A stretch of DNA of 64,000 bases from contig CAYSEN010000001.1 of assembly GCA_964430335.1 (NCBI GenBank), positions 1,653-65,652 of the forward strand. Direction: 5' to 3'. A program made the position numbers and the translations under genes. This document shows positions 14,198 through 46,702 of the stretch, piece after piece. The DNA comes from an uncultured Candidatus Saccharibacteria bacterium. Lineage in GTDB: Bacteria; Patescibacteriota; Minisyncoccia; Phycocordibacterales; SIBU01. The first letter of the stretch is position 1; each line of letters starts with the position of its first letter. The notes under the pieces were generated by a model. That model was not told the DNA's origin and made no database searches. It saw only the letters and a list, made by a program, of their open reading frames with translations.

Positions 14198-14285
14198 AGA
14201 ATTTCATTTTCGAAAAATCAAAAACAAAATTCTATGAGTAGTGCTGAATACTGTCTTTAGATTTACCAACGTTTTGATAAACCCA

Positions 14286-15853: not shown

Positions 15854-16057
15854 TTTGTAATTCACCTATCTTCAAACAAAAGCAAAAAAATGTGACTATT
15901 TTGGTACACACTTATTTTGTTCTCACAAAACGCGGGTTTCTAAGTCGCGAATTGTGCCTGAATCGGATTTGTCGACAAGTGAGCGGGGGTCTAGACTGTC
16001 CCCATTCACCTGTCGAAACCAATTCGTGTCTACAGACTGGCAAAATTTGTCAGCCTG

Positions 16058-16093
16058 ATAAACAGGAGAAGTTGTAACCACAACTTCTCCAAA
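16058..16093. repeat. hairpin direct repeat copy 2 (ataaacaggagaagttgtaaccacaacttctccaaa)
   Basis: See copy 1. There is one loop substitution (g to a). Confidence 0.75.
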
Positions 16094-16158
16094 ACCCGTG
16101 CGACAATTTATCCATTTTGTGGAATAGGAAGTCGCCCTTCCTTTGTTGTTGGTCTGGA

Positions 16159-30465: not shown

Positions 30466-30954
30466 ATGCCTTTAGATAACACGGTTGAAATCATAAAGAA
30501 TATTCTAGGTTTAATGGGTTTAAGGTTTGATTCGGTGGAGAAGGTTGAAGATTCGAAATCGAATTATTTTAAGTATTTAATAAAAACAGAAGAATCGGGA
30601 GTATTGATAGGTCCAAACGGAGCGAATCTAGATGCTTTAAATTACTTAGTACGAAAAATTGTTAGTAAGCAAAATGGCGACGAAACCTCAGCTAAGTTCT
30701 CTATTGATGTGAATGGATATCACGATAAAGCCCTTGAGTCCTTGAAGACTAAGGCAAAAATAATGAGCGACAGAGCCAAATCTTTTAAAATTGATGTAGA
30801 ACTAGACCCTATGTCGTCTTACGAGAGAATGATCGTTCACTCACACCTCGAAGGTGTTCCAGAAATTAAAACCGAATCAATCGGTGAAGGTTCTAGTAGA
30901 AGAGTGGTAATAAAATATATCGGAGCTGTCTCGAATCCAGAGAAATTTATTTAA
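30466..30954 (+). CDS. khpB: Jag/KhpB RNA-binding protein (KH plus R3H)
   Basis: R3H motif YERMIVHSHLEG. Follows yidC. Confidence 0.75.
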   Translation: MPLDNTVEIIKNILGLMGLRFDSVEKVEDSKSNYFKYLIKTEESGVLIGPNGANLDALNYLVRKIVSKQNGDETSAKFSIDVNGYHDKALESLKTKAKIMSDRAKSFKIDVELDPMSSYERMIVHSHLEGVPEIKTESIGEGSSRRVVIKYIGAVSNPEKFI

Positions 30955-32192
30955 TTTGATCCGAGTCTAAGGCTCCAGATATGATAATCAATTTTGTTGG
31001 TTATCATTAGGTAATCTTCTTTAGGGCTAAGCATGAGGTTCATTCCGTCTATATCTTTCTTAGCGTAGTCTTTCAATCTCAATAGTAATTCCCCTGATCC
31101 GGTATCCGTATTTATTTTCCATATTTCATCTGAAAACAAAACTTGTCCTTTATACCAAGAGTCCGGGTACAAACCTTGCGGAATATATGATGGAACACTG
31201 CAATAGATAATTTCTTGGTTATTCTTTGACCAGACACATTTTTCTGGGAATGTAGAAACTGGCGTGTCGGTTACCTTCCCTGTTTTGAAGGAATAGATCT
31301 TAAAATTTATTCCACCTGATGTGCTTTCCGAATAAACTGCGCGCTCGCCTTTCAAATCAGTTTTAGTGGTCAGTCCATTTATGTTAGATATCGCCTTTGT
31401 TAATTGGCCGTTTTTAGCATTTAGCATAAACATTACCCCACCGGCGCCTGCAGATGGTTTCGATGTTATTGTGATAATGTTTGAGCTAGGCCAATCAACT
31501 AGCCACTCCGTAAGTGGTGAATCAAAAATTTGTGTCCTTTTAGCGTTATCAAAATCTGCCACAATTCCGTTACTGCCAACCGAACTCTGGAGTAAATAAA
31601 AGATTTTATCTTTGTCTGGGTTGATTGTGATTGATTTGATATTTTCCGCCATAAAATTACCACCCAAAGCACCGTCTGGATGATCAGAGTTTTTGTCCTG
31701 TATGTAGGCGTTGTATGACTTTATGTTATCGCTATCATCCTCCGCGTATCTTATTATTATTTTCTTCCCTGTTTTGTCCCAAATCGCTTCTTCGATTTTT
31801 GGAATGGTCGTGTTGGTCACTCGATCCTCGGCGTCATTTTGGGGACTAACATTGTATACATTACCTGTCCCTTTTTCTATAAAGCTAACAATAATATTTG
31901 ACGAACTCGCCGTGATTGTCGCTCCTGCAATCGGTCTGGTTGAGAGTTCTTTTAAAACAGGGATAAACGCGTTTCCTGTCGGTGTTTCGCTCTGGCTGGG
32001 TGTGCTAGTACCGATGTTTGTTTCTGGGCTGGGATTCTCACCTCCTGGGAAGGGGTTTTCGATTTTAGGGTTTTGGTTTTGGTTTGAATCTACCTTATTG
32101 TTATTTTTTGTATAAAAATAGAAAACAAGCAGGCCTCCTGAAACCAGAAGCAAAACCAAAATAATTATGATGATAGCGGTTTTTTTAGACAT
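30951..32192 (-). CDS. N-terminally anchored extracytoplasmic protein (operon member)
   Basis: TM IIIIILVLLLVSGGLLVFYF followed by a beta-rich domain. Last gene of the minus-strand operon. Confidence 0.5.
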   Translation of the reverse strand: MSKKTAIIIIILVLLLVSGGLLVFYFYTKNNNKVDSNQNQNPKIENPFPGGENPSPETNIGTSTPSQSETPTGNAFIPVLKELSTRPIAGATITASSSNIIVSFIEKGTGNVYNVSPQNDAEDRVTNTTIPKIEEAIWDKTGKKIIIRYAEDDSDNIKSYNAYIQDKNSDHPDGALGGNFMAENIKSITINPDKDKIFYLLQSSVGSNGIVADFDNAKRTQIFDSPLTEWLVDWPSSNIITITSKPSAGAGGVMFMLNAKNGQLTKAISNINGLTTKTDLKGERAVYSESTSGGINFKIYSFKTGKVTDTPVSTFPEKCVWSKNNQEIIYCSVPSYIPQGLYPDSWYKGQVLFSDEIWKINTDTGSGELLLRLKDYAKKDIDGMNLMLSPKEDYLMITNKIDYHIWSLRLGSN

Positions 32193-33287
32193 TTAATTAT
32201 TTGGCCAATTTCTGCAACTAAGTAGAATATGACTCTTGCCAGATGTCTGACCTGTTTGATCCGCACAAGCCTTTTTAATAATTTCGATTGTTTCATCGGC
32301 TTTTTTTCTTATTGCCTTTGCTAGCTCTGGGTCACTATACTGATTATTTGCCCTACTTATTGCGGCGACAGCTTCATTGTCTACCGTTCTCATCATCTCG
32401 TTGGCAATCTTAGAGTTCCCTTTGTTTATATCGTTGAAGGCTATGAACGGAGCGGTAATATTTAAATTTTGAAATTTATCTAACTCCAATTTTTTAGCAG
32501 CGGGCTCGTCATTGAACCTAAGCATGTCTTTTATTTCGTTGTTAAAACTACCAATCATTAATTTTTGATAGCCTGACGCATTTTGAGCACTATCAGCAGA
32601 CAGGTCATTTACCGTCTGATTAACAGCAAGTCTCCTATTCATTTCTATTGCTTTTTGTGATTCCATTTGCAACGCGTCTTTTTCCAGTTTATCAGCTGCG
32701 TCCCTCATGGCCACATAAGATTCTGGACTGGTTGCCTGATCCATTTGAGACCGGATCTGATTAGCCGTGGCCTTCTTTTCATCGGCGGTTTTTGTTACGT
32801 CAGCAACTTCTTGTCGCAATTTAGTATAAAGATTATCGAGGGTTTGAAGATCTGTCGGAGCCAGAATTTCTTTACCAGCCTTTGCCTGCTTCCAGAATAG
32901 AAAATTCATACTCACGAGCGTTGGGTCAATGGTATACAAAATAATGTAGGAAGTAAGAGCAAGTATAAGCCCTCCAATAGCTCGCTCTATTCTCGCCTTC
33001 CCTTCCTCTTTTCCTGTAATAGCGTCGGTCGATAGGTATTCAAAACCGCCAAGAACTATCATTAAGAATGCCAAAATACCTGCTAAAGCAATCCCGACTT
33101 TAAATGAACCAATTAAATAAACAGAAAGGTTGGTAGCACATGGTGGAGTGGCACAGTTGGGCGTCGTGCCTGGGATAGGCGCAAGTGGTACATAGTCAGC
33201 TGCCGAGAGTGTTAAAACTGGTAAAAGAAAAAAACTTAGGATTAGCAGAGTTTTAAATAGGCTGTTTTTTATTTTTTTTAATCGCAT
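32193..33287 (-). CDS. membrane protein with VirB2/TrbC-like N-terminal module (signal peptide plus two hydrophobic helices) and coiled-coil C-terminus
   Basis: Signal peptide, then VGIALAGILAFLMIVLGG ... AIGGLILALTSYIILYTI with a short charged loop between. The pilin-like topology is only suggestive. Confidence 0.4.
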   Translation of the reverse strand: MRLKKIKNSLFKTLLILSFFLLPVLTLSAADYVPLAPIPGTTPNCATPPCATNLSVYLIGSFKVGIALAGILAFLMIVLGGFEYLSTDAITGKEEGKARIERAIGGLILALTSYIILYTIDPTLVSMNFLFWKQAKAGKEILAPTDLQTLDNLYTKLRQEVADVTKTADEKKATANQIRSQMDQATSPESYVAMRDAADKLEKDALQMESQKAIEMNRRLAVNQTVNDLSADSAQNASGYQKLMIGSFNNEIKDMLRFNDEPAAKKLELDKFQNLNITAPFIAFNDINKGNSKIANEMMRTVDNEAVAAISRANNQYSDPELAKAIRKKADETIEIIKKACADQTGQTSGKSHILLSCRNWPNN

Positions 33288-33292
33288 TTTAT

Positions 33293-34306
33293 TTAAAATT
33301 GAACCTCACTTGTTTTTCCAAAACTCAAAGAGATGTCATTTGCTGCCATTTGGAACATCTTATCTGGGTTTGAAATTTGAAGGCTTACAAAGGATACACC
33401 TTTTGTGTCTTTGTCTTGCCTAAAAATTAAAGTGCTTTTGTTACCAGAATTTACAATGTTGCCATTTTGTCTCCATTCATATTTCAAATTATTACCTTCC
33501 CTCTCTTTTGCGCCAATAAAATATGGAATACCGACAATGCTTATTTCAGATTGACTAAGTACTGTATTGCTACTTAAGGCTCTGTTGTACTGTATTCCAT
33601 ATATAGGACTGTTTTCATAAAACAAGAGTTGAGGCAGTTGAGGTGCTAGGGAAATTGTTTTTGAAGCGTTGTATTTTTTATCTAACGTGGACACATCTAC
33701 TGATATTTTAACTGTGTTTGGCAACGTTCCGCCAGTGTAAATCATGTAATTTTTACCTAAACCTGAGGCTTGGGAAACTGCATCTCCGTCTATTGACCAC
33801 GTGTATACTAGATTTTTAGAAGATTCCTGAACGCCTCCGATAACAATGTTTGGCACTGCGACAATCTTAACACTCCCCTGCATTGGATAGATGGCCTTAC
33901 CTTTATAGAAAGGAGGTGTATAGGATTGTGCCTCCCAAATCAAATCCACATTTGCCGGGTTAATGTTTAGAGTTTGTTGGTATGATTGCCCATTCTTGTC
34001 TTTTATTAAAACAAGAATGTTTGTACTGCTACCAATGGGGCCAGTTTTAAACATTAATGTTTTGTCACCAGTGGCCTCCTTTTCTAGTTGACCGTTAATG
34101 AACCAAGATATTTCAGTTCGGTTTAAATCAATTGCATAGCTCTCCAAATTAACTTTAACGAATTGGTTTGGTCCGGGATAAGTAGGATCAGTGGTTATCA
34201 GTATGTTGTTTGAACTTCCAGAACCGCCTAATACTTGAAGGTCGGCAAATGATACTAAAGGTAATAAAAATAAAGCTATGAGAAATGTGATTGAAACAGG
34301 TTTCAT
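33293..34306 (-). CDS. secreted beta-rich repeat protein (operon member)
   Basis: Signal peptide. Repeated roughly 90-aa Ig-like segments. Confidence 0.5.
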   Translation of the reverse strand: MKPVSITFLIALFLLPLVSFADLQVLGGSGSSNNILITTDPTYPGPNQFVKVNLESYAIDLNRTEISWFINGQLEKEATGDKTLMFKTGPIGSSTNILVLIKDKNGQSYQQTLNINPANVDLIWEAQSYTPPFYKGKAIYPMQGSVKIVAVPNIVIGGVQESSKNLVYTWSIDGDAVSQASGLGKNYMIYTGGTLPNTVKISVDVSTLDKKYNASKTISLAPQLPQLLFYENSPIYGIQYNRALSSNTVLSQSEISIVGIPYFIGAKEREGNNLKYEWRQNGNIVNSGNKSTLIFRQDKDTKGVSFVSLQISNPDKMFQMAANDISLSFGKTSEVQF

Positions 34307-34333
34307 GTACTAATATTTTATCACAGAAAAAAA

Positions 34334-35236
34334 TTATTCAGTTAAGCTGTTTTCCTCATCTTCTTTAGCCTTTTTTCTTTGACCGTAAGAGAGAGATAAA
34401 TCTAGCAAATTACTTCTAAACTTTAAGGCGTCTTTGCTTTTTTGCCTCTCCTCGTTGTTTGCGCTCCCCCTTAGGTCTAGGCTGTTAGGATCTGAAGCGT
34501 CATCTTCCGCCCCTTGGTCAGAATTATTGTTACTATAACTTCTGCTTTCACGACTGGTCTGCCTTCTCGAGGTTTTTTGTTTCGGTGTGCTGTTTCTGTT
34601 GTTTTGATTTTCCTCCCCGATTGCTCCTTCATTGTTGTCTCCCAATTCACCACCATCTGAGTCTCCGTTTTCTTGATCATCATCCCCCTCCTCATCTTCG
34701 TCATCTAATTCCGGAGGAACGGATTCGTTTTCTGCCACCTCACCCGCTAGAGAGGCTCCTTCGGCACCAGCACCTACTTCTGCCCCTACCCCAGAGGCCA
34801 CAGCTCCTTCAGCTGCCAAAGAAGCACCTCCTGTTTCAGGAGCCAAAGCCACAGCTCCGGCAGCCACCGCGACTTTTGCAATTTTTGCTAATTTCTTTTC
34901 AGCTTCTACGGAAGCGTACATTACAATCCCGTCTAAAAACCAAAATGGCATCGCGTCTACGTCAGGAATCTCTTCTAGTAAAAACCCTAAACTGACAGTT
35001 AGTATTTTAGGTGCGTCAAAATTTACTCCTCTTAAATATAGATATGTCGGCCAAGCAAGTCCTGTAGCGAAGCTAATAAAACGATTCAAGAGTGTCCCTA
35101 CAGTTGCTATGAAAGGAATTCCAATCCAATCCAACACAAATTGGGCAATATCAATAATGCCGAGAATGGATATAACCATTCCCCACTCTAGTTTGCTGAT
35201 GTTTGGGCCACTTTTTTTAGCTTTTTTCTCGGCCAT
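34334..35236 (-). CDS. membrane protein with Ala/Gly-rich region and disordered acidic C-terminal tail
   Basis: 3-4 TM helices, then a DDEDEEGDDDQENGDSDGGE tail. Confidence 0.5.
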   Translation of the reverse strand: MAEKKAKKSGPNISKLEWGMVISILGIIDIAQFVLDWIGIPFIATVGTLLNRFISFATGLAWPTYLYLRGVNFDAPKILTVSLGFLLEEIPDVDAMPFWFLDGIVMYASVEAEKKLAKIAKVAVAAGAVALAPETGGASLAAEGAVASGVGAEVGAGAEGASLAGEVAENESVPPELDDEDEEGDDDQENGDSDGGELGDNNEGAIGEENQNNRNSTPKQKTSRRQTSRESRSYSNNNSDQGAEDDASDPNSLDLRGSANNEERQKSKDALKFRSNLLDLSLSYGQRKKAKEDEENSLTE

Positions 35237-35248
35237 TTGCTAAGGGTT

Positions 35249-37066
35249 TTACTTCTGGTCGCTGCTTTCCAAATCTTGTTTTGCCTGCTTGATCGCAAGT
35301 AGTTGTGACGGGTCTGAGGTGATGATCTGGTCTTCAGTGTACGAAGCGATCACTTTTATAGCGACGTGCTTTAGTCCCACGAAGAAAATTCCCTCACCTA
35401 CGTCCGATTCGAGTAGCAGATATTTTTCTTCATCAGTAAGACTAAAAGTTTTTTGAATTTTATCAATAGACGAGGGTGATTGTTTTAGCAACATTTGAAT
35501 AGAAGAGTTCGTGATGATAGGTAGTCCGTATGGAGATTTTAGGAAGTCGTCCACGTCTTGAGTAATGGTTGAAAGACCAAGGTAATATTTTCTTCCTCTT
35601 TTTGCCAGTCCAAGTAGGAATGAAGCCGTATCTTCTGATTTCATCATCCACCAAGCCTCGTCGATAACCAAAAGTCTTTTCTTAAGGTTTTTACGAATGG
35701 CGTTCCAGATGTAGTGCATGACTATATACATCGCCACCGGCTTTAGTTCATCTTCCATGTCTCTAAGAGAAAATACGATAAATTTACTATCAATATCGAT
35801 GTTTGAAGGTCGGTTAATAAAACCAGCCCAAGTTCCTCTTGTGTATTTACTTAGTCTTTGGACCAAAGAGTCCGCTCCTTCCATTCCAGCCAATACCAAT
35901 TCAAAATCAGACAGAAGTGGTGGCTCTACATTTCTAAAATCTGAATCAGGTGAAATGTCTTTGAGTGCGTACGTTTCGCTGATTGCGCGGTCTATAAGAG
36001 CGTCTTCCTCTGGTGTTAGGCCCCCTAACATGATTCTGAAAAGGCCAACAAGGTTAATTATGTTAGAGCGTAAAACATCTGCTGGTGACTCGTCTTCTCT
36101 TGGAATAGGCAAATCAAATGGGTTTATATGATGACTTGAGTTTAGTGAAATCGTAAAGTACTTCCCTCCCGTAGCCTCTGCCATATATTCGTATTCTCTT
36201 TCAGGATCAATCACGATAACTTCTGTATCAAACATCAAAGTTCTTAAAATTTCCAATTTGGTATTGTAACTTTTACCAGAACCAGATTTCGCAAAAGTAA
36301 TTGAGTTGTAGTTTTCCAAACTAAATCGATCAAAAAGCACAAGCGAAGAATTATGTCTGTTGATTCCGTACAAAATACCTTTGTCAGAAGTTAGGTCGAA
36401 AGAAGTGAATGGAAAAAGCGAAGAAAGAGGTTCAGAATTTAACTTCGAATGAATCATGAGTTCATCCTTAGCCATTGGCATAACACTTCGGAAACCTTGT
36501 TCTTGTTGGAAGAGTGCAGGCTTAATGTAAATCAATTTCGATTCCAAAAGTGATTTTATCTCCGACTCAATTTTGTCGAGCTCTGCATCAGAGTCTGCGT
36601 AAATAGACATGTACAGACCAACATCAAATAATTTTTCCTGAGCTTGCATCAAATTGTCACGCAACCTCTCAAGGTCTTGATATGCAGTATCTAGCATCGG
36701 GTCTCTGACCAGCCCTTTTTTCTCCCTAGTGCTGATTTGGCTTTGAACCTCGGCCACTTTTTTCTGAAATTGTCTCAAGACAGTGGCTGTGTCTATCGGG
36801 TGAATCATTATGGAAATATCAAAAACCTTGTCTAGGTTTATGATAGGAGAAAACCACCCAGCTGAAAGAAATCTAGGATATGAAATTACGAAAAAAGTTC
36901 TTACGATTTTATCACCCAAGTTTAGCGCTCTCGGACTAACCTTTAGAGCTGATGGTGCTATAACATCCTTAAGCTCTAATACACCTGCCTCGTAAATTTC
37001 TTGTGGAAGAATCGAGGCGATGTCTGGAGTCTTATCTTTGCTTTTTAGAAAATCAAATAATCCCAT
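35249..37066 (-). CDS. virB4: VirB4/TrbE-family T4SS ATPase, C-terminal roughly 605 aa (middle plus ATPase domains)
   Basis: Walker A FAKSGSGKSY, Walker B RLLVIDEAWWMM and upstream VIDPEREY. Start set at MGLFDFLKSK. The ORF-track upstream extension to 37171 is in the overlapping frame. Confidence 0.8.
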   Translation of the reverse strand: MGLFDFLKSKDKTPDIASILPQEIYEAGVLELKDVIAPSALKVSPRALNLGDKIVRTFFVISYPRFLSAGWFSPIINLDKVFDISIMIHPIDTATVLRQFQKKVAEVQSQISTREKKGLVRDPMLDTAYQDLERLRDNLMQAQEKLFDVGLYMSIYADSDAELDKIESEIKSLLESKLIYIKPALFQQEQGFRSVMPMAKDELMIHSKLNSEPLSSLFPFTSFDLTSDKGILYGINRHNSSLVLFDRFSLENYNSITFAKSGSGKSYNTKLEILRTLMFDTEVIVIDPEREYEYMAEATGGKYFTISLNSSHHINPFDLPIPREDESPADVLRSNIINLVGLFRIMLGGLTPEEDALIDRAISETYALKDISPDSDFRNVEPPLLSDFELVLAGMEGADSLVQRLSKYTRGTWAGFINRPSNIDIDSKFIVFSLRDMEDELKPVAMYIVMHYIWNAIRKNLKKRLLVIDEAWWMMKSEDTASFLLGLAKRGRKYYLGLSTITQDVDDFLKSPYGLPIITNSSIQMLLKQSPSSIDKIQKTFSLTDEEKYLLLESDVGEGIFFVGLKHVAIKVIASYTEDQIITSDPSQLLAIKQAKQDLESSDQK

Positions 37067-37070
37067 ATTT

Positions 37071-37721
37071 TTATTTAACTTGAATTGGCTTTTCGGTGTC
37101 ACCCGGATTAAATATTTTGTAGAAAAGTTCCACCACCTCTTCTGTTCCGAGCAAAACTGCTCTAATACCACATCTCATAAGTCCTTGTTCTACAACGGAA
37201 ATTCTCTGTAGCAGTTGGCTTCGGCTCTCCTCAAATGCATCTTGTTTTCTCTGCGATTTTTCAACCGCTTCTTTTCTGGTCAAGAATTTTCCTGCTAATT
37301 CTATCACTCCCCCTTTGGCTTGGAGAGGTGCTGGAGCGTAGGGTATGACAACAAAAAAGGTCTTAGTCATAATGCTCGTGCTTTCTGTAAAATTTTTGAT
37401 GAATTCTATGTACTCTCTTGTTTGAGTTTTCATCAGATCAGTCGTCTGGTTTTTGTAGGTCTCTTCTAGGAGTGCAATATATGGTCTGATATCCAATTTT
37501 CTCGATTCGATAAATAGTTGCACGGAAAAATCTAGAGAATTTAGAAAGTTCTGGAATTGCAATATGATAGCGTTTTGGTTGTCCTCAGACTTTAGTGCAA
37601 AGTTTAAAGACGAAGTCATGACTATTCCACGAAACGAGCCGTCTCTAAGCACGACAATACCGTCCCGAACCTCTTTGATCGGTACGAATTCTTGAGTCGC
37701 CTTAGAACTTTCTGTCGCCAT
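37071..37721 (-). CDS. VirB4 N-terminal domain encoded as a separate 216-aa ORF
   Basis: FVPIKEVRDGIVVLRDGSFRGIVMTSSLNFALKSEDNQNAIILQFQNFLNSL...VQLFIESRK matches, from memory, the first 100 aa of Agrobacterium VirB4 (PYIGHLSDHIVLLEDGS...GVAFELEE...FNTLLRNI...VSIYAHLVRH). The stop TAA lies 4 nt before the ATG of the ATPase ORF. Confidence 0.6.
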   Translation of the reverse strand: MATESSKATQEFVPIKEVRDGIVVLRDGSFRGIVMTSSLNFALKSEDNQNAIILQFQNFLNSLDFSVQLFIESRKLDIRPYIALLEETYKNQTTDLMKTQTREYIEFIKNFTESTSIMTKTFFVVIPYAPAPLQAKGGVIELAGKFLTRKEAVEKSQRKQDAFEESRSQLLQRISVVEQGLMRCGIRAVLLGTEEVVELFYKIFNPGDTEKPIQVK

Positions 37722-37771
37722 GCCTTGTATTATAACTTAGATTGCGATTGTTATTAACGATTTTTCTGTGC

Positions 37772-38200
37772 CTATCTATTTTCCATAGTCTCTTTTACTC
37801 CTGGATTCTGAGTGTCATTTATATCAAGGCTCCATGTGAGATCCTTGAGTTTGCTATCAGATAACTTTGGAACATATAGAGGTGACTGTGACTCCACTTC
37901 TTCTTTGTGCTGAGGTTTCTTCTCAGTTTTCTTCCAAATATAGAGCTTGTCAGTGAAAAAATATTTAAATGCTGCTTCAACCACAAAGACGAAAGGACGA
38001 TTGTTAACCTTGTATAGCGCTAAAGCAAGGGAAAATGCTATTACTGGAGCCATTAAAAATATGGCGATATAAAAGTTTAGGTAATGGTATATTATAAATG
38101 AAAGACCTGCCCCACCAGCAAGATAGACAAATTGTTTGACCGTAAAAGGGCCGAAAATTTTGTCTTCAATTTCTATGAATTGTGGAACTTGGAATCTCAT
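37772..38200 (-). CDS. PrgI/VirB3-like small T4SS membrane protein
   Basis: MRFQVPQFIEIEDKIFGPFTVKQFVYL followed by two hydrophobic helices. Lies immediately upstream of VirB4, as do VirB3/PrgI homologs. Confidence 0.55.
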   Translation of the reverse strand: MRFQVPQFIEIEDKIFGPFTVKQFVYLAGGAGLSFIIYHYLNFYIAIFLMAPVIAFSLALALYKVNNRPFVFVVEAAFKYFFTDKLYIWKKTEKKPQHKEEVESQSPLYVPKLSDSKLKDLTWSLDINDTQNPGVKETMENR

Positions 38201-38208
38201 TTGTTTTT

Positions 38209-40038
38209 TTAAGCTATAGGTTCTCTGTAAGGGTCAGAACTATATTTTGCCTCAGTCTTCTTTGATTGAACAGGAGCTCCTAGTTTCTGTTCAATGATAT
38301 TTTTTGCAGGCATTGTTGGTATTGGTCTTTGACCTATCACTATTTTTGGAATTTCTCTAGGTGTTTCTTTGATTGGGTTTTGTGATGGAGTGCTGGAAAT
38401 ATTAGGCGTAGAGGCTTTAGGTGCTGGTGCGATTACTATTTTCGGCATTGGTTCTGGAGCCTTTGGTTTTGGTGGCGCAGGAGGTTGCGGTAATCTGTCC
38501 TCTACTGGTTTAGGTGGTGCCACAGGAGGCCTTGGTGGTGTCGGAATCTGAGAAACTGGTTTCGGAGGCATTGGGGGAACAGGAGGGGTCGCACTACTTA
38601 CAGGCTTTTGAGGGGGCACAAACTTCGGTGGCTGTGGAGGAACAGGTTTTGCTGGTTCTGCGGGTCTGATATTTTGAGAAATTTTAACTTTTTCTGGCTC
38701 AGGCTTAAACCAATCCTGCGCTGTGAATTTTTCGGTATCTAGAGAAGTAGATGAATTTGGATTTTCGATATCTTTTAAAATTGCTTCTCTGTTAGGCAGG
38801 ACTTCCTCGCTCTTTTTTATAGGTTCTGCTTCGTTTGGTTGTATTGGTGAGAGTCTCGTTTTTAGGGTGTTGCTTGTGTATGAAGAAGGCACTTCCCCGT
38901 TTACTTGTTTTAACGCCTCACGTATTTTAAGGAAAACTTCGTTATTAATTTCTTGGGCAAGAGATTTGGTTTTTTCTTCATTAATTCCGAGTCTTCTTGA
39001 TAGTCTTGGTAAGAATTGAGATGTGGGCGTCATTCCTAGAATAACCATGCCTGTCTCTTCCCCGAGTTCCCCGAGCTTGTCTACATGTAGAGCATATTTT
39101 CTACCGATGTCCAAAACTTTTTTTGCGGAATCAACAGATCTCAATGCGTTTTTTAATGTGTAAGGAAGTTTGTCGAATCTGGCCTGTAGCTCCTTTTCGC
39201 TCAACTTGCTCGAGAGCATTTTCAGGAATGATCCGAGAGGATTTTCGGACATTCTTTCACTATTCATTTCAACAATAGGAGGTCGGCTAAAATTACTTTG
39301 CGCACCGCTAGAAATCTCTGAGCTATTTGCCGTTGAGGTTGGTGTGTAGACTTTTGTGGTGGAGAATTCTGATAGTGGCTGTGGAGGAACAGGGGCTAAT
39401 TTGGATGGCTGGAAATTCTCGAAACCAAAATCCTTTGTGTTACTAATGTATGAGGGTTTGATTTCAGCTTGTTCTTTTGGTTTCTCCGGAATAATTTTTT
39501 TAATTGGTACAGATCTTTCCTGGCTCTGAGCGACTGATTCAGCGGAATCAGGTTCTGATTGCGAATCGATTTTGTCTTGCTCATTAAATTCGATTCCGGA
39601 ATCGTTTATCGGCATTCTTGGGGCGCTAATTTCGGCTTCTTGTGTTTCAGTATTTTCCTGTACAGGATTTCCCTCTTCTTGTGCTTGTGTTTCGGCCGGA
39701 GTTTCGTTGATTGTTAAAGGAGAAATGCCGAGAGCTGGCAGTATTTTGGTAAAAATTTTTTCGTTGATCTCGCTTACAATGGTCGCAACTTTTTCTCTAT
39801 TATCCTCGTCTAATTTTTCTAGTAACTTTTCCTCAAATTCAGTAACCGGTATTTCCTTTTTTGCGATCTTTTCTATTACCTCGCAAGTCTCGCCTATTTC
39901 GGCGTAGGTTATTTCTATTTGATTTAAAATTTCCTCGATCCGTTCAATAAGGGCCGTATCTGGGAAAACAGAATTAAACTCCGGGTTTAACCTTTTAATT
40001 GTTTGAAGTAAATTGTTTTCTTGTGAAATGAATTTCAT
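38209..40038 (-). CDS. acidic/proline-rich low-complexity protein (no TM detected)
   Basis: Extensive PxxP tracts PPQPPKFVPPQKPV... in the C-terminal third. Coiled-coil N-terminus. Confidence 0.5.
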   Translation of the reverse strand: MKFISQENNLLQTIKRLNPEFNSVFPDTALIERIEEILNQIEITYAEIGETCEVIEKIAKKEIPVTEFEEKLLEKLDEDNREKVATIVSEINEKIFTKILPALGISPLTINETPAETQAQEEGNPVQENTETQEAEISAPRMPINDSGIEFNEQDKIDSQSEPDSAESVAQSQERSVPIKKIIPEKPKEQAEIKPSYISNTKDFGFENFQPSKLAPVPPQPLSEFSTTKVYTPTSTANSSEISSGAQSNFSRPPIVEMNSERMSENPLGSFLKMLSSKLSEKELQARFDKLPYTLKNALRSVDSAKKVLDIGRKYALHVDKLGELGEETGMVILGMTPTSQFLPRLSRRLGINEEKTKSLAQEINNEVFLKIREALKQVNGEVPSSYTSNTLKTRLSPIQPNEAEPIKKSEEVLPNREAILKDIENPNSSTSLDTEKFTAQDWFKPEPEKVKISQNIRPAEPAKPVPPQPPKFVPPQKPVSSATPPVPPMPPKPVSQIPTPPRPPVAPPKPVEDRLPQPPAPPKPKAPEPMPKIVIAPAPKASTPNISSTPSQNPIKETPREIPKIVIGQRPIPTMPAKNIIEQKLGAPVQSKKTEAKYSSDPYREPIA

Positions 40039-40050
40039 AAATCAATTTTT

Positions 40051-43000
40051 CTAAGCCTTTCGCCATTGATCGCTAGCAAAAGTAATTTGCTTACTCGGTG
40101 ATTCAGCCTGATTTTCCAGTTCACTGTACACACTTCTGAGTTCAGGGCTCAAAGTTTCGATCGGTCTGGTTATTGTTTTACTTCTAGGATCTAGGAATAA
40201 ATATTTTAACAATCTTCTGTTTTCATCGGTAACTAATCCATAACCATCTTTCTCTGCTTTGTATGATTTCAATAAACTTTCGAATAGAGATGTAATATCT
40301 TCGCTGTCCTTGTCCTTAAATTGTTGGAAAATACCTTCATCGATCATTGAGTGCACTATCTCGCTATTTCTTGTTCGGCTTCTAGCGCCAGCTAATTCGT
40401 TCGCAGCTCTTCCTGACTTCCAGTTTAAGGCAATACTTCTTCTTAATGTGTCTCCAAGAGTGCCTTTTGAGTAAGTTTCCATGAAAGCTGTGTTCATTGT
40501 CTTGCTTATTTCATCTGGTGTTGCACCAGGCGTTGATGTAAGTAGTGCTTGTTTAGCATCTTCTGCAGCTTTTTTGGCTGCATCAAATGCCGCTTTTCTG
40601 GTCACACTCTCTTCCATTGCTTTCTTTTTTACTTCCTCGATTTCTTCCTTGGTTGCGGTAGGTTTTGAAGCCTTTAGGGCAGCCACAGCCTTTTCAGCAT
40701 CTCTTTCCCCATCACTTTTTATGTAGTTAGGGTCATTTGTTACTACGATCTTATCCATGTCAGAATCTTTATCGTAACTTAATCGGTCTCTTAGGTTAAA
40801 GGCGAAGTTTTCATTTGTTCGTATTTCCTTGTTTGTTAACCCCCATCTCATTGTGTGAACTAGCTCTTTTATGTCAAACATGTTTGGAGCTACAAATGAC
40901 GCCAGTTCGTATTCAGGTAGAGTCATCTTGTTTCTAGCCCAAGCTTTAAGATTACCTGGAAGGGTAGGCTTTGATTCAGGGTTTTCAATCTTCTCACCTG
41001 TGTTAAGTACTGCATACCTCACTCCGTTGATTGTTTGAATTGCACTTTCATCTACATCGCCGTTCTCTGGGTTTACCTGAACTTTACCGTCCAAAATGGC
41101 TTTTCGTACCGCTGCCTTCTTAGCGTCGTAATCATCAACCTGTTTTTGATAAACTGCGAATTGTTGAATTTCGTCTTTCCATCTTGAACCAATCATTTCT
41201 TGTTTTTCTTCCATTGTCCAGTGATCATTGGCAAGCACAGCCTTTAGTTGTTTCAGGGTGGCGTACCTTGAGAATTCTTCAATAGTGTGTTCATCCAGAT
41301 CGGCAAAATCCTCCGGTGCAATCCTTGTTACCGCTGAAGACAGTGCAGACTCGGCTTTCTTAGTGGCATCGTCGGCCAACTTGATTCTAGCCTGATCTTT
41401 ACTTGCTCTAGCAGCTTCCATTTCTTCCCTAGCTTTATCCAGCTGAGTTAGTCCGGATTTAGCAAAATCAATTTGCCCAAGTGCAAATCTTCGATTTTTT
41501 AGTTTCTCACTATCTTCATAATATTCTTCAACTGACTCTTCCCCACCAAATTTTGCATGGGCTCCAAAAAGGGATCCACCGGTAGTCTTTTTTCTTATAA
41601 AACTTCCCAATTCAGTAGCACCAAAACCTGTACGTTTGAATTTTTTATCCAATTCGTTGATATCGATATTTTTTTGTACCTTTTCCGCTCCGCTCTTAAA
41701 TTTGTCACCAAAATTTTTAAGTCCTTCTCTACCCGTCCATTTTCCAAGTGTACTAGCGGCTCCACCGACAACATTTCCAACTGCGGATACATATGTGCCT
41801 CTAACTACAGTTCTACCAACAAACGCTCTGGCCTCCTTCCCTACCTCATCTGCAAACTCAACTCCAGTCGCCTCAAGTTTGTGAGCCACCATGATTGAGC
41901 CTAGCATCAATCCAATTAGAAGAATGAAGTTAAATACAAATGCTAGTCCTGCCGTTGTGCCGTTGTCTGCACCTCCAGTACCAAAGATTAGTTTAGCGGC
42001 TGAAACGGCGGTAGAGGCCGCTGAGTACGCAGTGTCTTGTCGGTTTACGGTCATAACACCAAACTTAAATGCATCAGTTTGAATGGTTAAAACTACCACA
42101 TAGCAAAGCGCCATATATATCGGTGCGAATATAGATTGGCTGATGAGTTTTTCCTTCCATTCCTCCGCGTAGTGTTCGGTAGAAGGAAGCACAAATGATA
42201 GAAAACCTAGAGGCGAAAGAATCATTACCATCATAAGTACTACCACTCTTATTATGAAAAGTATGGCTGCTACTATGAAAACGTACGCGGCGGTAATCAT
42301 CAAAATAATGCCGAATATTCCAATTAAAATAATTTTGCCAAAGTTTATTACTCCTCCCGCGATTTGGCTGTTAAGATCAGACTGAATGCCTGCCTGTTGC
42401 AATGCTTGGCCCCCTGCGGTTTGCGGTTCGTAGACTGTTTGTATCTTGAGACCTTCCATGAACGCTCCTGAAAAACTTGAGGTCGGAGTAGCGTAATTAC
42501 TTACAAAGGACTGTATTTCATCCCCGTTTGGTTTAGGATTTGGTGTCACAATCAGGTTATAGAAATGGAGAGCGACAATGTTTGACCCGTCAATAACAGC
42601 CTTTGTAATGAAAAGGCTGAAGTTCATGAGTAATGCCACGATAACGAGATTTACGATAATTTCCTTTGTCTTCCCTGTCGCTAGACCGAGAATGGTTCCT
42701 ATAGCTGTCCAAAGCAAAATGAAAATAAATAAAATATTGGCCAAATCTCTGAAGATTCTCCAACCAATGTCTACTATTGGCACATGCTTCATAAGGTCGG
42801 CCATGTTTAAGGTGTAGTAGATCGACATGTCTAAGATCTTTCCGGCTAGCCACAAAAACCATGAGAAAATCCACATGATTATGTAGACAATACTTGCTGC
42901 GCAAGCGTCCAGGTTTAAGGAAGGAATACCAAAATTGCCACTAAGACATCCGATGGTGGTTGGAGGATTTTTACCGTTTGCACCTTGGTTGTCGGCACTG

Positions 43001-43188
43001 GCCGCTTTTTGACCCGTGGATTGAGGTGTTGTCTGCGCCCCGTTAGGACTCGGTGCCGCAGCTCCTGTAACTACCGAGTTAGGGTTAAGTTCTTGAACCT
43101 GAGCGAAAGCCGTCTCAACACCCAGCGGGTTTAAAAAACCACTTAACAGAGTTGCTAGTATGAATGTTGATAATAAAATTTTTTTCAT
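40051..43188 (-). CDS. VirB6/TrbL-like polytopic membrane protein with roughly 600-aa hydrophilic C-terminal extension
   Basis: Signal peptide, then at least 6 TM helices across residues 95-480. A long coiled-coil-rich C-terminus. VirB6-like topology and neighbourhood. Confidence 0.55.
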   Translation of the reverse strand: MKKILLSTFILATLLSGFLNPLGVETAFAQVQELNPNSVVTGAAAPSPNGAQTTPQSTGQKAASADNQGANGKNPPTTIGCLSGNFGIPSLNLDACAASIVYIIMWIFSWFLWLAGKILDMSIYYTLNMADLMKHVPIVDIGWRIFRDLANILFIFILLWTAIGTILGLATGKTKEIIVNLVIVALLMNFSLFITKAVIDGSNIVALHFYNLIVTPNPKPNGDEIQSFVSNYATPTSSFSGAFMEGLKIQTVYEPQTAGGQALQQAGIQSDLNSQIAGGVINFGKIILIGIFGIILMITAAYVFIVAAILFIIRVVVLMMVMILSPLGFLSFVLPSTEHYAEEWKEKLISQSIFAPIYMALCYVVVLTIQTDAFKFGVMTVNRQDTAYSAASTAVSAAKLIFGTGGADNGTTAGLAFVFNFILLIGLMLGSIMVAHKLEATGVEFADEVGKEARAFVGRTVVRGTYVSAVGNVVGGAASTLGKWTGREGLKNFGDKFKSGAEKVQKNIDINELDKKFKRTGFGATELGSFIRKKTTGGSLFGAHAKFGGEESVEEYYEDSEKLKNRRFALGQIDFAKSGLTQLDKAREEMEAARASKDQARIKLADDATKKAESALSSAVTRIAPEDFADLDEHTIEEFSRYATLKQLKAVLANDHWTMEEKQEMIGSRWKDEIQQFAVYQKQVDDYDAKKAAVRKAILDGKVQVNPENGDVDESAIQTINGVRYAVLNTGEKIENPESKPTLPGNLKAWARNKMTLPEYELASFVAPNMFDIKELVHTMRWGLTNKEIRTNENFAFNLRDRLSYDKDSDMDKIVVTNDPNYIKSDGERDAEKAVAALKASKPTATKEEIEEVKKKAMEESVTRKAAFDAAKKAAEDAKQALLTSTPGATPDEISKTMNTAFMETYSKGTLGDTLRRSIALNWKSGRAANELAGARSRTRNSEIVHSMIDEGIFQQFKDKDSEDITSLFESLLKSYKAEKDGYGLVTDENRRLLKYLFLDPRSKTITRPIETLSPELRSVYSELENQAESPSKQITFASDQWRKA

Positions 43189-43194
43189 GATTCC

Positions 43195-45564
43195 CTATTG
43201 AACGTTGATTGTGCTTGTTTGTGTCGCAATCACACTCTCCTTTGATGTATTTGTGGCCGGTTTATACACTTCTGTAATCAATTGATACTTATATCCTAAC
43301 ACCGCACTGCTTTTAATGTGTCCGATCTGATCGATTTGTAACGAATTAGCCGAGGTTAGTGTTAGGGATTTGTTGTAAGTAAATGTTGTTTGTGACATAT
43401 CATCTGCAAAAAATACGAATTCTGTTTTTTTGTTTTCTGGTTTTGTGGTTTCGTTTATCTGGAAGGAATCAAATAGCGTTGAAAGTGAAAATGATGTTCC
43501 GTCCTGGCTTTTTAGGCTAATTCTTACTCTTAATCCCGGAATGTCTTGGTTGTTATCAAGTACCAAGGCGTTGCTAAATGAATCACCAGGGTTTTTGTTG
43601 ATGTTGTTGATCTGTGCCATTGCAAACGAAGTGTCTAATGGGGATGAGCTGTCTACCGGTCCACCACCTGTTGTGTTTGATGAGGTGTTAGTAGAAGGTT
43701 TGTAAAGCTCTACTTTGTAAATGGCAATTTCGTTTGGATTGGAAACCACGATAGCGTTCGCTGTTATCGGCTGATTTAGTGTGATAGTAAAGTCGTCTAC
43801 AGATCCAGAAAATGTGAAGTTGGAGTTAGCACCGCTGTTACTTGATGGGTAGTGGAAAACCACGTAACTCATAATGTCATTTTTCGAAACAGGAATACCT
43901 GTTTTGTCTGCTGGCATATTTGCTAGGTAGACTTCGTTACCAGTACCGTGACCAGGATATGATCGGACCTTAATAATTTGAACTTTATCAGATTGATTTA
44001 GAGCTGCAGACCACCAGTGTGGAGCAGGTCCACCGCTGGTCCAAGAAAAACTGTAACCCCCTACTGCGTTCTGAGGTCCGTAGGTTCTGCCATCGCCATC
44101 GATTCCTACATAAGACTGATTTAGCTTTGCGCTGTTTAGGTTAATACTTCTGTCCGGAGGTGCTTGTGTTGCTGGTTTTGTGACGACTGGTGCAGTCACT
44201 GAATTGTTGCCGTCAATAAATTCGTTTGTACCGTTTGCAATAGATGTGGTTTTGTCGATGTTCTTACAATAAAGTACGACGTTGTTGTAATTGGCTACAG
44301 TCCACTTTGTGGTGGTGTTGTCTGCGCCAATTTTTACTGTAGGCGTGTATGATGCCGTTTTGCTAACTACTCCGTTGATCTTTACCAATACTGGTGAAGT
44401 AAGGGTCGGTTGAGTGTTGGTCGGTGTATCAACTCCGTAAATGTTTTTATTAAATTCATTACAGAACTGAAGTCCTGTAGGTCCATTGGCACCTGTTGGT
44501 CCAATACCGTTTACATACAGACCGTCTGGAAGATTTTTTGCTTGGTTGTTTTCAGAAATGATTTGATCACTACTACTCTTAAGGGCCTTGTCTACTGCCG
44601 ACTGTCCTCCGTTGTCATATGATGGAGTACTTGCTCCAGCTAAGCCCCCTACTCCTCCTAAGACCTGATTTATTAGTTGTCCAACAAGCGCTCCCAATAT
44701 TGCATCAAGATCTTTTGCTAGGCCAACTCGGTGAACTTGCTCGCCAAGAGTGTTTGATAGTTGGTCTTCGATGAGTGACCCTGGCGTCGTGATCTTCCCT
44801 GTTTTTGGATCTACAGAAGAAAGAAATCCTTTACCGAAATCTAATTGTTTTGTAAGTCTAAACTGAACACCCGCAATTCTTGCGTCAACTGTGTTTACGG
44901 CTTGAAGATATGAGCCGTAAATATTATTTTGCGGAGTGACTGTTAGATTAAGCCAGTTATCCCATCCATTCTTGCCGAACACTCCTGTGGTGAAAGCTCT
45001 TTGTACGTTTTTTTGGATATCACTTAGTCTACACCCCACATACTGATAATAGTCAGGTCTCGAGTATTGAATTCCAAGGGAAATTCTTAATTGAAAATCA
45101 AAAGGACTACATACAATCGAACCGATTGGACCTAGGCCTTCAATGAAAGTTCCCGCAGCCTGATCGGCGGCGTCAGCCAAAAAACCTTGTAGGTTAGTTA
45201 CGTATAGAGGGCTTCCGCTAAAGCCGTTGTTGATCCAGTTTACGGTTTGGGCGGTGAAATTGTCGAGCAGAGATCTGGCCATGATCGTCACAAGTGGCTC
45301 GACAATACATCTCTGTATTGTAAAACCTGTAGTCTGACCTGCTGTTTCGCTGTTTGCGCTATGGTTTGCTGAGTCGTAAGTAGGCACAGCCTGTATTTGA
45401 TTGGCCACTCCTTGGGCTAACTGCTTACCTTTCGTTGCCAAAATTCCCGCCAGACAAGATGAATCGGCGTGCGCCCCATTTGGAAGAGCTGTTAGAAAAG
45501 GTCCTACTATCAAAAGTAATGTTGCGAGTATTCCGAAAGTTTTTTGTTTCAAATTATTTCTCAT
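43195..45564 (-). CDS. large secreted/surface protein (789 aa)
   Basis: Signal peptide MRNNLKQKTFGILATLLLIVGPFLTALPNGAHA. Thr/Ser/Asn-rich beta-rich sequence. Confidence 0.5.
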   Translation of the reverse strand: MRNNLKQKTFGILATLLLIVGPFLTALPNGAHADSSCLAGILATKGKQLAQGVANQIQAVPTYDSANHSANSETAGQTTGFTIQRCIVEPLVTIMARSLLDNFTAQTVNWINNGFSGSPLYVTNLQGFLADAADQAAGTFIEGLGPIGSIVCSPFDFQLRISLGIQYSRPDYYQYVGCRLSDIQKNVQRAFTTGVFGKNGWDNWLNLTVTPQNNIYGSYLQAVNTVDARIAGVQFRLTKQLDFGKGFLSSVDPKTGKITTPGSLIEDQLSNTLGEQVHRVGLAKDLDAILGALVGQLINQVLGGVGGLAGASTPSYDNGGQSAVDKALKSSSDQIISENNQAKNLPDGLYVNGIGPTGANGPTGLQFCNEFNKNIYGVDTPTNTQPTLTSPVLVKINGVVSKTASYTPTVKIGADNTTTKWTVANYNNVVLYCKNIDKTTSIANGTNEFIDGNNSVTAPVVTKPATQAPPDRSINLNSAKLNQSYVGIDGDGRTYGPQNAVGGYSFSWTSGGPAPHWWSAALNQSDKVQIIKVRSYPGHGTGNEVYLANMPADKTGIPVSKNDIMSYVVFHYPSSNSGANSNFTFSGSVDDFTITLNQPITANAIVVSNPNEIAIYKVELYKPSTNTSSNTTGGGPVDSSSPLDTSFAMAQINNINKNPGDSFSNALVLDNNQDIPGLRVRISLKSQDGTSFSLSTLFDSFQINETTKPENKKTEFVFFADDMSQTTFTYNKSLTLTSANSLQIDQIGHIKSSAVLGYKYQLITEVYKPATNTSKESVIATQTSTINVQ

Positions 45565-45609
45565 GAAAAACTCCGTTACCCAAAAATAATTTGGATAACT
45601 TTGTGTAAA

Positions 45610-46584
45610 TTATAACTTATCAAAGAATTGGTAGCCATCCTCTCCTTTGCCGAAAACAACGTCTTTGCTAATAAAATAAGTTTTGAAGGCGGTTACTGAG
45701 TCCGGAAAATTTTTAGCACTGTCTGCGTAGCTAGCCACTCCTGGCAAAGCCTTTATCGGGTCAGTCAAAATGTATTTTAAACCGTTGATACTCCAGGCCA
45801 TGGCTTCTGTGCTATTTAGCAAAGCCAAGTGAAAAGGAACAGCACTTTTTGGCACCTTCATTGCTAATAGAGAGACCCCGATTTTTTTATAGGCGGCGAT
45901 GTTGTCGTTTAATTTTTCAAGCTCAGCAGGTTTTTTACTCTCTTCTGCCCTGTTTACTATTTCTATCTCGTATTCTAGTTTTTTAGTTGGCGGTTTTTTT
46001 AGTAGAGATGCAATAGAATTGCCATAATTTTTTATAATCTCATTTGATTCCTCTGTAATTAAATTTAAGTCTGATTCTGAGTAAGTCTTTAATTTTTGAG
46101 TATCTATTTCATTTTTGATTGCTTTGTTTAGGAATTCCTGAAAATCAGCCTCAGTTGGAGGGTTTTCAGAATTTCCCGAAGCGATTACTTTCACAAAAAG
46201 CTCTCTTGAAAATTTATCGGTGTCGGTTAGATCTTGCTCGGTTTGTGAATTGATTTTACTGCCTACGGTCTCTTGGTCCAATTTGTCATTTGGCCCTGCA
46301 ACTGTTGGGTTTCTACCACTTTTTATCTCCGCTCCATCCATAACTCCGTCACCGTCAGAATCCGGATTGTGTGAGTCGGTTTTCCATAGTTGCTCTTCCC
46401 AATCTTTAAGTCCGTCGCTGTCATTATCAATTGCCAGGAAGGTGTTGTTTGGGGTCACCTTAGGAGTTCCTGCTACATAGGATGTTTTTTGTGTAAGTTT
46501 TGTGGTTAGAAAAATTAACCCAAAGATTACTATTGCTATAGAAATTAATATTAGTTTTTGTCTCTTTGGATTCATGTTAAGCAA
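45610..46584 (-). CDS. membrane-anchored protein with thrombospondin type-3-like Ca-binding Asp repeats
   Basis: TM then DNDSDGLKDWEE and DSDGDGVMDGAE repeats. First gene of the operon. Confidence 0.5.
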   Translation of the reverse strand: MLNMNPKRQKLILISIAIVIFGLIFLTTKLTQKTSYVAGTPKVTPNNTFLAIDNDSDGLKDWEEQLWKTDSHNPDSDGDGVMDGAEIKSGRNPTVAGPNDKLDQETVGSKINSQTEQDLTDTDKFSRELFVKVIASGNSENPPTEADFQEFLNKAIKNEIDTQKLKTYSESDLNLITEESNEIIKNYGNSIASLLKKPPTKKLEYEIEIVNRAEESKKPAELEKLNDNIAAYKKIGVSLLAMKVPKSAVPFHLALLNSTEAMAWSINGLKYILTDPIKALPGVASYADSAKNFPDSVTAFKTYFISKDVVFGKGEDGYQFFDKL

Positions 46585-46664
46585 AACTGCGCGGTAAAAT
46601 ATTCCGCACCACTATAAAAGAATTATATCAGAAAAATTACTATTTTTTTCCACAGATTTTTTTA

Positions 46665-46695
46665 AAATTTGCGACCTTTTTCTTTGTAGTATAAT
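46665..46695 (+). promoter_or_regulatory. sigma70-like promoter (TTGCGA-15nt-TATAAT) giving leaderless or near-leaderless mRNA for 46703 ORF
   Basis: TATAAT ends about 7 nt before the ATG. -35 TTGCGA. Confidence 0.3.
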
Positions 46696-46702
46696 TATTC
46701 CA

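Follow-up and report, generated by a model that had tools for sequence, protein, structure and literature searches.

Nearly all ultra-small Patescibacteria (candidate phyla radiation, CPR) carry, near the replication origin, a chromosomal cluster of type IV secretion system (T4SS)-like genes that is non-conjugative, and the locus described here, an eleven-gene operon within a 64-kb window (the whole stretch of DNA analysed, 64,000 nucleotides of contig CAYSEN010000001.1), is one more copy of it. In Southlakia epibionticum, transposon sequencing (Tn-seq) found that growth on the host requires the origin-proximal cluster (Wang et al., 2023, Cell; PMC10633639), which in this species encodes VirB6, PrgI, TrsD-like, VirB4, lysozyme-like and Ig-like proteins along with six PF18895 pilins, and lacks a recognisable coupling protein or relaxase (PMC10633639). 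VirB4 was subsequently reported from 2,417 of 3,035 Patescibacteria genomes (Quiñonero-Coronel et al., 2025, Microb Genom; PMC12102498), with nearly all of the sequences forming one clade nested in MPF-FATA. In that study TrsD, PrgI, VirB6 and VirB2-like pilins lay close to VirB4 and a relaxase almost never did, homologues of the type IV coupling protein (T4CP) were common yet distant from virB4, and the neighbours of virB4 in Paceibacteria and Microgenomatia were dnaA, dnaN, rnpA and ksgA (PMC12102498). A 2025 FEMS review gives these systems a new branch of their own within the superfamily (PMC12857230). Both the system and its context have thus been described between 2023 and 2025, and what is added here is the conservation of all eleven genes and a candidate host-binding adhesin, g2. 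Our data suggest that the operon very probably encodes an MPF-FATA-derived machine that no longer serves conjugation.

The operon occupies positions 30951-46584 of the window and consists of eleven intact, co-directional open reading frames (ORFs) on the minus strand, named g1 to g11 in transcription order, with gaps from g1 to g11 of 45, 6, 12, 8, 50, 4, 12, 27, 5 and 0 nucleotides (nt). A first-pass annotation, made by a model from the sequence without database searches, had likewise seen eleven tightly spaced minus-strand genes, which agrees with these gaps of 0-50 nt. The GC content of the operon (0.37-0.43) is the same as that of the surrounding genome, and five of the eleven products have a predicted location outside the membrane. 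The genes, with product lengths in amino acids (aa), are as follows.

g1, 45610-46584, minus strand: N-terminally membrane-anchored surface protein, 324 aa from a TTG start.
g2, 43195-45564, minus strand: secreted protein of 789 aa, directly upstream of virB6.
g3, 40051-43188, minus strand: probable extended VirB6 of 1045 aa, with a signal peptide, a polytopic domain (residues ~90-440) and a hydrophilic tail.
g4, 38209-40038, minus strand: 609-aa protein with a Pro-rich C-terminus and neither transmembrane (TM) segment nor signal peptide.
g5, 37772-38200, minus strand: PrgI/VirB3 homologue, a two-helix membrane protein tethering VirB4 to the membrane.
g6, 37071-37721, minus strand: TrsD-like protein of 216 aa, a free-standing counterpart of the VirB4 N-terminal domain.
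g7, 35249-37066, minus strand: VirB4 ATPase of 605 aa, MPF-FATA/CD1110 type.
g8, 34334-35236, minus strand: small polytopic membrane protein with a conserved N-terminal ~130 aa and a low-complexity acidic tail.
g9, 33293-34306, minus strand: secreted beta-rich protein of 337 aa.
g10, 32193-33287, minus strand: VirB2-like T4SS pilin domain (residues ~30-125) followed by a variable helical C-terminal extension of ~240 aa.
g11, 30951-32192, minus strand: surface protein anchored in the membrane at its N-terminus, with a linker rich in Pro, Ser and Thr and ~330 aa of beta-rich domain.

As seen in Southlakia epibionticum ML1 (SEML1_0004/0006-0019), the cluster is origin-proximal, keeps the core order VirB6 - PrgI - TrsD-like - VirB4, carries PF18895 pilin sequence and an Ig-like exported protein downstream of VirB4, and holds no recognisable relaxase or coupling protein. 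The two differ in that S. epibionticum has six short tandem pilins, whereas this operon has a single pilin-domain protein, extended by 240 aa, and in that S. epibionticum encodes two VirB6-like proteins, an NTF2 (VirB8-like) protein and a lysozyme, of which the second VirB6-like protein, the NTF2 protein and the lysozyme were not detected here. Essentiality has been demonstrated, by Tn-seq, for S. epibionticum only. With the Patescibacteria clade of Quiñonero-Coronel et al. (PMC12102498) the locus shares an MPF-FATA VirB4, adjacent TrsD, PrgI, VirB6 and PF18895 pilin, the lack of a relaxase and the same chromosomal neighbours, and there is no difference in kind; in that study the non-homologous neighbours carry no annotation and adhesins are not reported, whereas here the neighbours are found to be a conserved set and g2 bears lectin or Ig modules in its orthologues. 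The composition that the first-pass annotation called unusual is so when set against textbook T4SSs, but within the Patescibacteria it is the norm.

Relatives were sought in a scan of one genome per species, which yielded 578 confirmed VirB4 relatives, and loci were compared for the best 80 of these, 42 of which had complete 10-kb flanks and are referred to here as full loci. The best 80 of the 578 are 79-92% identical to g7, and those whose records bear a taxon name are all Patescibacteria metagenome-assembled genomes (MAGs), including Taylorbacteria, Zambryskibacteria, Kaiserbacteria, Wolfebacteria, Campbellbacteria, 'Paceibacterota' and 'Parcubacteria'; about a dozen of the 80 are labelled only 'bacterium'. 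The taxon-bearing members of the 90% identity cluster of g7 are likewise Parcubacteria, Magasanikbacteria or Patescibacteria (two are labelled only 'bacterium'), and a reduced-genome host, as had been proposed, fits nearest relatives that are Taylorbacteria and other Paceibacteria MAGs. The order ksgA / g1 ... g11 / yidC (rnpA) dnaA recurs in all 42 full loci, each of them from a Paceibacteria/Parcubacteria MAG, so the arrangement is not due to chance, and the comparison of synteny that the first-pass annotation had called for thus returned the same order and the same position throughout. Eight of the genes (g2, g3, g5, g6, g7, g9, g10 and g11) were each recovered in 40-42 of the 42. The median identity in the related loci is 82% for VirB4, the most conserved protein of the neighbourhood, 63% for TrsD, 57% for PrgI and ~26-38% for the accessory proteins; the corresponding medians in the same loci are 62% for DnaA, 56% for UvrD and 51% for DnaN. 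To judge from these identities the VirB4 ATPase is under strong purifying selection, and the neighbours of virB4 appear as a fixed eleven-gene set that is itself under selection. The suggestion that most of the accessory proteins are lineage-specific did not hold in any narrow sense, since all eleven genes, the fast-evolving g8 among them, keep their order in dozens of Paceibacteria genomes at species level, with ~30% identity. Because order and position are fixed and the identities in related loci are as given, the cluster reads as vertically inherited, fixed in place and strongly constrained, being neither mobile nor decaying.

The same data bear on another reading, in which the operon would be what an ordinary integrative conjugative element (ICE) uses for transfer, or the decaying remnant of one. 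The best match of VirB4 is to the conjugation-type CD1110 family, TrsD and PrgI belong to families of conjugative plasmids, and a tyrosine recombinase is encoded 11.5 kb away, all of which could be expected of an ICE. Pfam scans, which covered nearly all ORFs of at least 110 aa in the 64 kb outside a GC-rich island, found no relaxase, VirD4/TcpA coupling protein or VirB11 in the operon or in the rest of the window, and no VirB8/9/10 or lytic transglycosylase. Their absence from the operon had been stated by the first-pass annotation, and its proposal to look for a relaxase or VirD4 further along the contig gave none in the window. The other ORFs within this scope have housekeeping functions only, among them a PilB-type ATPase and the tyrosine recombinase. 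Downstream of the operon lie jag/khpB, yidC and rnpA, then dnaA and dnaN, and upstream a divergent PG_binding_1 protein, then ksgA, uvrD/pcrA and a LysM-M23 peptidase, flanks that are free of relaxase, T4CP, integrase and repeats. There is no integrase beside the operon, and the recombinase (XerC/D-like, 58134-59072), the only one of its type in the window, is parted from it by nothing other than housekeeping genes. Together with the same ksgA to yidC-rnpA-dnaA position in 42 of 42 related genomes and the native GC content, this chromosomal context leads us to reject the ICE as extremely improbable; a pseudogene cluster is rejected because the eleven ORFs are intact and highly conserved, VirB4 more so than DnaA, which is the opposite of decay. 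That the channel is dedicated to something other than classical conjugation was proposed at the outset, and the housekeeping context supports it, in agreement with the published accounts (PMC10633639; PMC12102498).

Two wall-associated proteins are encoded close by. The divergent PG_binding_1 protein (46703-47692, plus strand) has a Cys-rich C-terminal domain and lies just outside the operon, and the peptidase (50791-51756, plus strand), of LysM-LysM-M23 architecture, lies 4.2 kb upstream of it. Both genes are syntenic in some relatives, and LysM/M23 proteins have been counted among the VirB1-like candidates (PMC12102498). A PilB/GspE-type ATPase with an MshEN domain, the extension motor of a type IV pilus, is encoded on the plus strand at 9974-11650, ~21 kb from the operon. 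An ORF of 90 aa directly upstream of g1 (46612-46884) was considered as a further member of the operon and set aside as spurious; it overlaps the divergent PG_binding_1 gene, belongs to no family and is present in 3 loci only.

A PrgI/VirB3-like protein had been predicted and g5 matches PF12666 (E = 4.4e-9, 37.2 bits against a Pfam cut-off of 27), with two overlapping hydrophobic windows (residues 33-62) that we interpret as two membrane helices; it was found in 77 of the 80 loci at ~57% identity. The VirB4 prediction was also upheld, and refined, in that the protein is split into a TrsD-like part and the ATPase. The mechanical call for virB4 was a 640-aa ORF with a GTG start (35249-37171), which overlaps the preceding gene, g6, by 101 nt. 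Because of this overlap, and because the VirB4 homologues from 80 genomes begin their alignment at residue 1 of the shorter product, the start was moved to the ATG at 37066, 4 nt past the g6 stop, giving 605 aa; the identical sequence is present in public collections under the label 'type IV secretory pathway VirB4 component'. This product scores 366 bits against NF045971, the CD1110-family model of Gram-positive type (cut-off 325), and 1.1e-27 against PF19044, and its Walker A (AKSGSGKS) and Walker B (LLVIDEAW) motifs, as read from the sequence, are both intact. The g6 product matches the NCBIfam models VirB4_plasma (NF045975, positions 99-233, 9.4e-12), CD1110-family VirB4 (NF045971, positions 2-119, 8.9e-8) and TrsD/TraD (NF041427, 1.7e-4), and as these matches fall in the N-terminal region of the VirB4 models we regard g6 and g7 as the two parts of a split VirB4. 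It was found in 79 of the 80 loci at ~63% identity.

The channel protein g3 had been described as a VirB6-like polytopic protein of 1045 aa, and this description gains support from its orthologues (6 of 46 match PF04610, TrbL/VirB6), from the annotation of database homologues, which bear PF19590 or PF04610 and in one case the JGI name VirB6, and from structure. An AlphaFold model of residues 1-480 reached a pLDDT of 72.5, with values >90 across most helices, and a Foldseek search with it placed R388 TrwI/VirB6 chains on top (probability 0.99, E ~0.04). The best natural structural matches, R388 TrwI/VirB6 and Legionella DotA, align with the g3 membrane domain at ~9-14% identity and TM-scores of 0.4 on the target; g3 differs from both in an extra hydrophilic extension of ~600 aa, which is helical, varies between genomes and fits the 'extended VirB6' sense of the FEMS review (PMC12857230). 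A profile search of PDB sequences with g3 gave nothing, so that VirB6 was reached by fold comparison only. On this evidence of families and modelled fold, g3 qualifies as a probable VirB6 homologue.

The possible VirB2-like protein of the first-pass annotation is g10, which has a signal peptide and two hydrophobic helices followed by ~240 more residues. PF18895 (T4SS_pilin) is matched by 47 of 49 g10 orthologues (best 4.7e-10), with the window protein itself below the cut-off (E = 0.005, 17.3 bits against 26.6). Only residues ~25-125 are conserved, and a local hidden Markov model (HMM) of this pilin region found g10 to be the only pilin-like gene of the window. The 240-aa extension is the chief anatomical oddity of the system. 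In single orthologues it carries cell-wall hydrolase domains (SLT, 3D, CHAP or M15, Peptidase_M15_4), which suggests that the extension is extracellular and that the pilin fold may here be an anchor or a decorated subunit. These domains also hint that pilin fold and VirB1-like function can be combined in one fusion protein. With a VirB3/VirB4/VirB6 core of MPF-FATA type and this VirB2-like protein, the proposed minimal channel of Gram-positive type is borne out.

The MPF-FATA conjugative T4SSs (TrsC-TrsD-TrsE of pGO1/pSK41; PrgH-PrgI-PrgJ of pCF10) share with the operon the VirB4 family, a PrgI-type VirB3 and a VirB6-like protein; pGO1/pSK41 share the split of TrsD from VirB4, and Gram-positive MPF-FATA systems the absence of an outer-membrane core. 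Unlike them, the operon has no relaxase, T4CP, VirB1-type hydrolase, detected VirB8-like protein or PrgB-type adhesin, possesses a VirB2-like pilin domain, which Gram-positive systems lack, and is chromosomal and vertically inherited.

Around this core stand the accessory proteins, several of which appear to face outwards. For g2, which has a signal-like N-terminus, conservation is limited to a Cys-containing N-domain (residues ~75-310), and the C-terminal half is not conserved; its place is taken in orthologues by a discoidin (F5/8 type C) or an Ig-like module, with F5_F8_type_C_2 in 6 of 41 and other Ig-like or PKD domains in single orthologues. A conserved N-domain joined to a swappable lectin or Ig-like C-terminus makes g2 a candidate host-binding adhesin. 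Its relationship to known families could not be extended: an AlphaFold model of the N-domain from a 32-sequence alignment was poor (pLDDT 56.7, pTM 0.28) and gave only noise in Foldseek, a profile search of PDB sequences returned nothing significant and no VirB5 chain, and a second, profile-based search of protein databases reached close Paceibacteria relatives only and no other phyla. The position of g2 directly upstream of virB6 mirrors that of virB5 before virB6, and also one adjacency of DUF4141 and traJ in Bacteroides, in which DUF4141 genes occur in the tra clusters of conjugative transposons near traG and once directly beside traJ (PMC10434189). A few g2 homologues match DUF4141, two of them just above the cut-off; the match covers ~35 residues beside the signal peptide (residues ~16-57), which is too short, and this lead was dropped without claiming homology.

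The Asp-repeat protein that had been read as Ca-binding is g1. It has one TM segment (residues 10-28), then thrombospondin-type-3 (TSP3) Ca-binding Asp repeats and a conserved C-terminal domain (~120-324) with no known relative. TSP3_bac is weak in the window protein and present in 15 of 41 orthologues (best 2.8e-10), which bears the reading out; NCBIfam gave weak matches to the TSP3 regions of MtsD/CglD, and a profile search of PDB sequences found no relative. Gene callers place the g1 start at an ATG 9 nt further downstream (321 aa), and the gene was found in 36 of the 42 full loci. The g9 product has a signal-like N-terminus and weak Ig or PKD-like hints only, beyond which a PDB profile search found nothing significant; it is probably an Ig-like multi-domain protein, and is present in all 42 full loci with ~94% of its length covered. 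Equally universal in the full loci (42 of 42, ~95% of length covered) is g11, which has one TM segment (residues 6-24) and a stop codon that overlaps the convergent jag/khpB by 4 nt. It matched no Pfam family and its PDB profile search was without significant result; repeated weak profile matches to TolB propellers (best E = 0.015) suggest that its beta-rich domain is possibly a beta-propeller.

The remaining two products differ from these. The Pro-rich protein noted at first sight, g4, is real; it belongs to no Pfam or NCBIfam family, has no hydrophobic segment and is probably cytoplasmic. Its conservation is confined to a central domain (residues ~275-400), and its orthologues have a median length of ~233 aa. 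By eye, and without a repeat search, the N-terminal 110 residues seem to repeat the central-domain motif (…EINxxIFxKI…AL), which suggests an internal duplication of a small helical module. The g8 protein, which has no Pfam family and whose acidic tail is ~170 aa long in this genome, seemed poorly conserved by tblastn; Jackhmmer searches with its N-terminal 130 aa recovered a family at the same position, comprising 55 of the 59 ORFs of at least 70 aa found there. There is space for a gene at the g8 position in 63 of 71 loci and no gene in 8 of 71.

Within the operon, the 45-nt gap between g1 and g2 contains a 10-bp hairpin followed by a T-rich tract (45575-45599, minus strand), which could be an attenuator or an internal terminator separating g1 from the remaining operon. 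The 50-nt gap between prgI and the trsD-virB4 pair contains a promoter-like TTAATA-17-TATAAT (37729-37757, minus strand), a possible internal promoter. A promoter scan of the sequence gave no enrichment over shuffled sequence and terminator-like sites only a slight excess over shuffles, so neither defines the operon boundaries.

We propose that TrsD/VirB4, held at the membrane by PrgI, would power a VirB6-based membrane platform, which would pull the VirB2-like protein from the membrane and build a filament or conduit across the wall. The products of g1, g2, g9 and g11 would form the extracellular scaffold and the host-binding part, with the swappable lectin or Ig end of g2 setting host specificity, and the assembled structure would mediate contact-dependent transfer of macromolecules between epibiont and host cell. 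Such a machine may export effectors, import host nucleic acid or serve in adhesion only. Helicobacter pylori ComB (DNA uptake) and Bordetella Ptl (toxin export) both work without a coupling protein or relaxase and with VirB2/3/4/6-type parts; they are diderm systems with VirB7-10 core complexes. No sequence affinity of the operon to either was found beyond the shared families.

A machine that imports nucleic acid (DNA or RNA), like H. pylori ComB or the archaeal Ced system, would supply a cell unable to make nucleotides, and specifies a direction of transport within the proposed mechanism and not against it. As in ComB, there are VirB2/3/4/6-type parts and no T4CP or relaxase in the cluster; a PNPase gene lies 8 kb from the operon, and g7 has a weak local match to CedB, though this spans the P-loop region only. 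A cultivated Patescibacterium that feeds on host RNA, and takes it up, forms tubular structures toward the host at their interface, which have been proposed to be T4SS pili, and its authors link VirB4 to macromolecule transfer, though they leave the route of RNA uptake explicitly unsettled (bioRxiv 10.64898/2026.06.21.733656). Transformation of S. epibionticum, however, needs comEC and type IV pili, and deletion of comEC leaves viability unaffected whereas the T4SS is essential (PMC12857230). Since deletion of comEC abolishes competence and not viability, the essential role of the T4SS in Saccharibacteria is not ComEC-dependent DNA uptake. We see import of nucleic acid as a minor possibility. 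A narrower proposal, that the locus encodes a complete, conserved and so far unannotated extracellular apparatus, in which g2 is the functional analogue of a VirB5 tip whose interchangeable discoidin or Ig modules set host specificity, g10 with g1, g9 and g11 forms a wall-spanning conduit, and VirB4 as the sole motor imports material from the host cytoplasm, for instance RNA, and exports nothing, is more speculative and appears doubtful.

Alternatively, the operon may build only a surface filament or adhesion organelle that moves no substrate, with VirB3/VirB4/VirB6 as the platform for pilin extraction and assembly and the surface proteins as adhesins. In Agrobacterium, pilus formation does not need VirD4. 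The absent T4CP would fit pilus biogenesis without substrate transfer, and surface proteins bearing lectin, Ig or Ca-binding domains are plentiful in the operon. Against this, Patescibacteria already adhere by type IV pili (PMC12857230), for which the window holds a PilB gene, the extreme conservation of VirB4 and the essentiality of the system in Saccharibacteria suggest a role beyond that of one adhesin among several, and the long extension of the pilin-domain protein argues against a canonical pilus. An organelle of adhesion only is accordingly unlikely.

Several points weigh against a non-conjugative transfer machine as set out above. The operon yielded no VirB8-like or VirB1-like component, and a gene for a T4CP or relaxase could lie in another part of the genome. 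Membership of g7 in the Patescibacteria VirB4 clade is supported indirectly, by the taxa of its nearest relatives. No Pfam model matched the window g3 itself, which owes its assignment to orthologues and a medium-confidence model, and the window g10 lies below the cut-off of the pilin family; its 240-aa extension may be incompatible with VirB2-type pilus packing, and the domain could simply be a membrane anchor. For this lineage the mechanism rests on sequence, the experiments coming from other lineages.

Elsewhere in the window, a full-length match to the type-P1 twister ribozyme (RF03160) lies at 13270-13348 on the minus strand, intergenic after ruvB and at the edge of the GC-rich island; it scores 50.5 bits, below the gathering score of 67.2, with E ~1e-9 to 1e-10 and the conserved core nucleotides largely present. 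The island (~13400-16600) has 53-56% GC at 13400-14150 and 63-68% at 14900-15800, against ~39% for the genome, and contains several minus-strand ORFs, including one of 313 aa at 14924-15865. Neither this ORF nor one at 13508-14062 (plus strand) belongs to a Pfam family, and searches of PDB and of phages gave no match for the 313-aa ORF. A further ORF of the island (13817-14197, 126 aa) is also present in other public contigs, which rules out an artefact of this assembly; the island is possibly a foreign insertion.

A large share of bacterial diversity lives epibiotically, and of the machines on which this lifestyle depends only a few are known, the T4SS of the Patescibacteria being one. The locus described here leaves that picture unchanged and provides a clean and complete example of the system from the Paceibacteria, in which the fixed eleven-gene set and the candidate host-recognition subunit g2 should be useful for structural and genetic work in the few Paceibacteria that have been cultivated.

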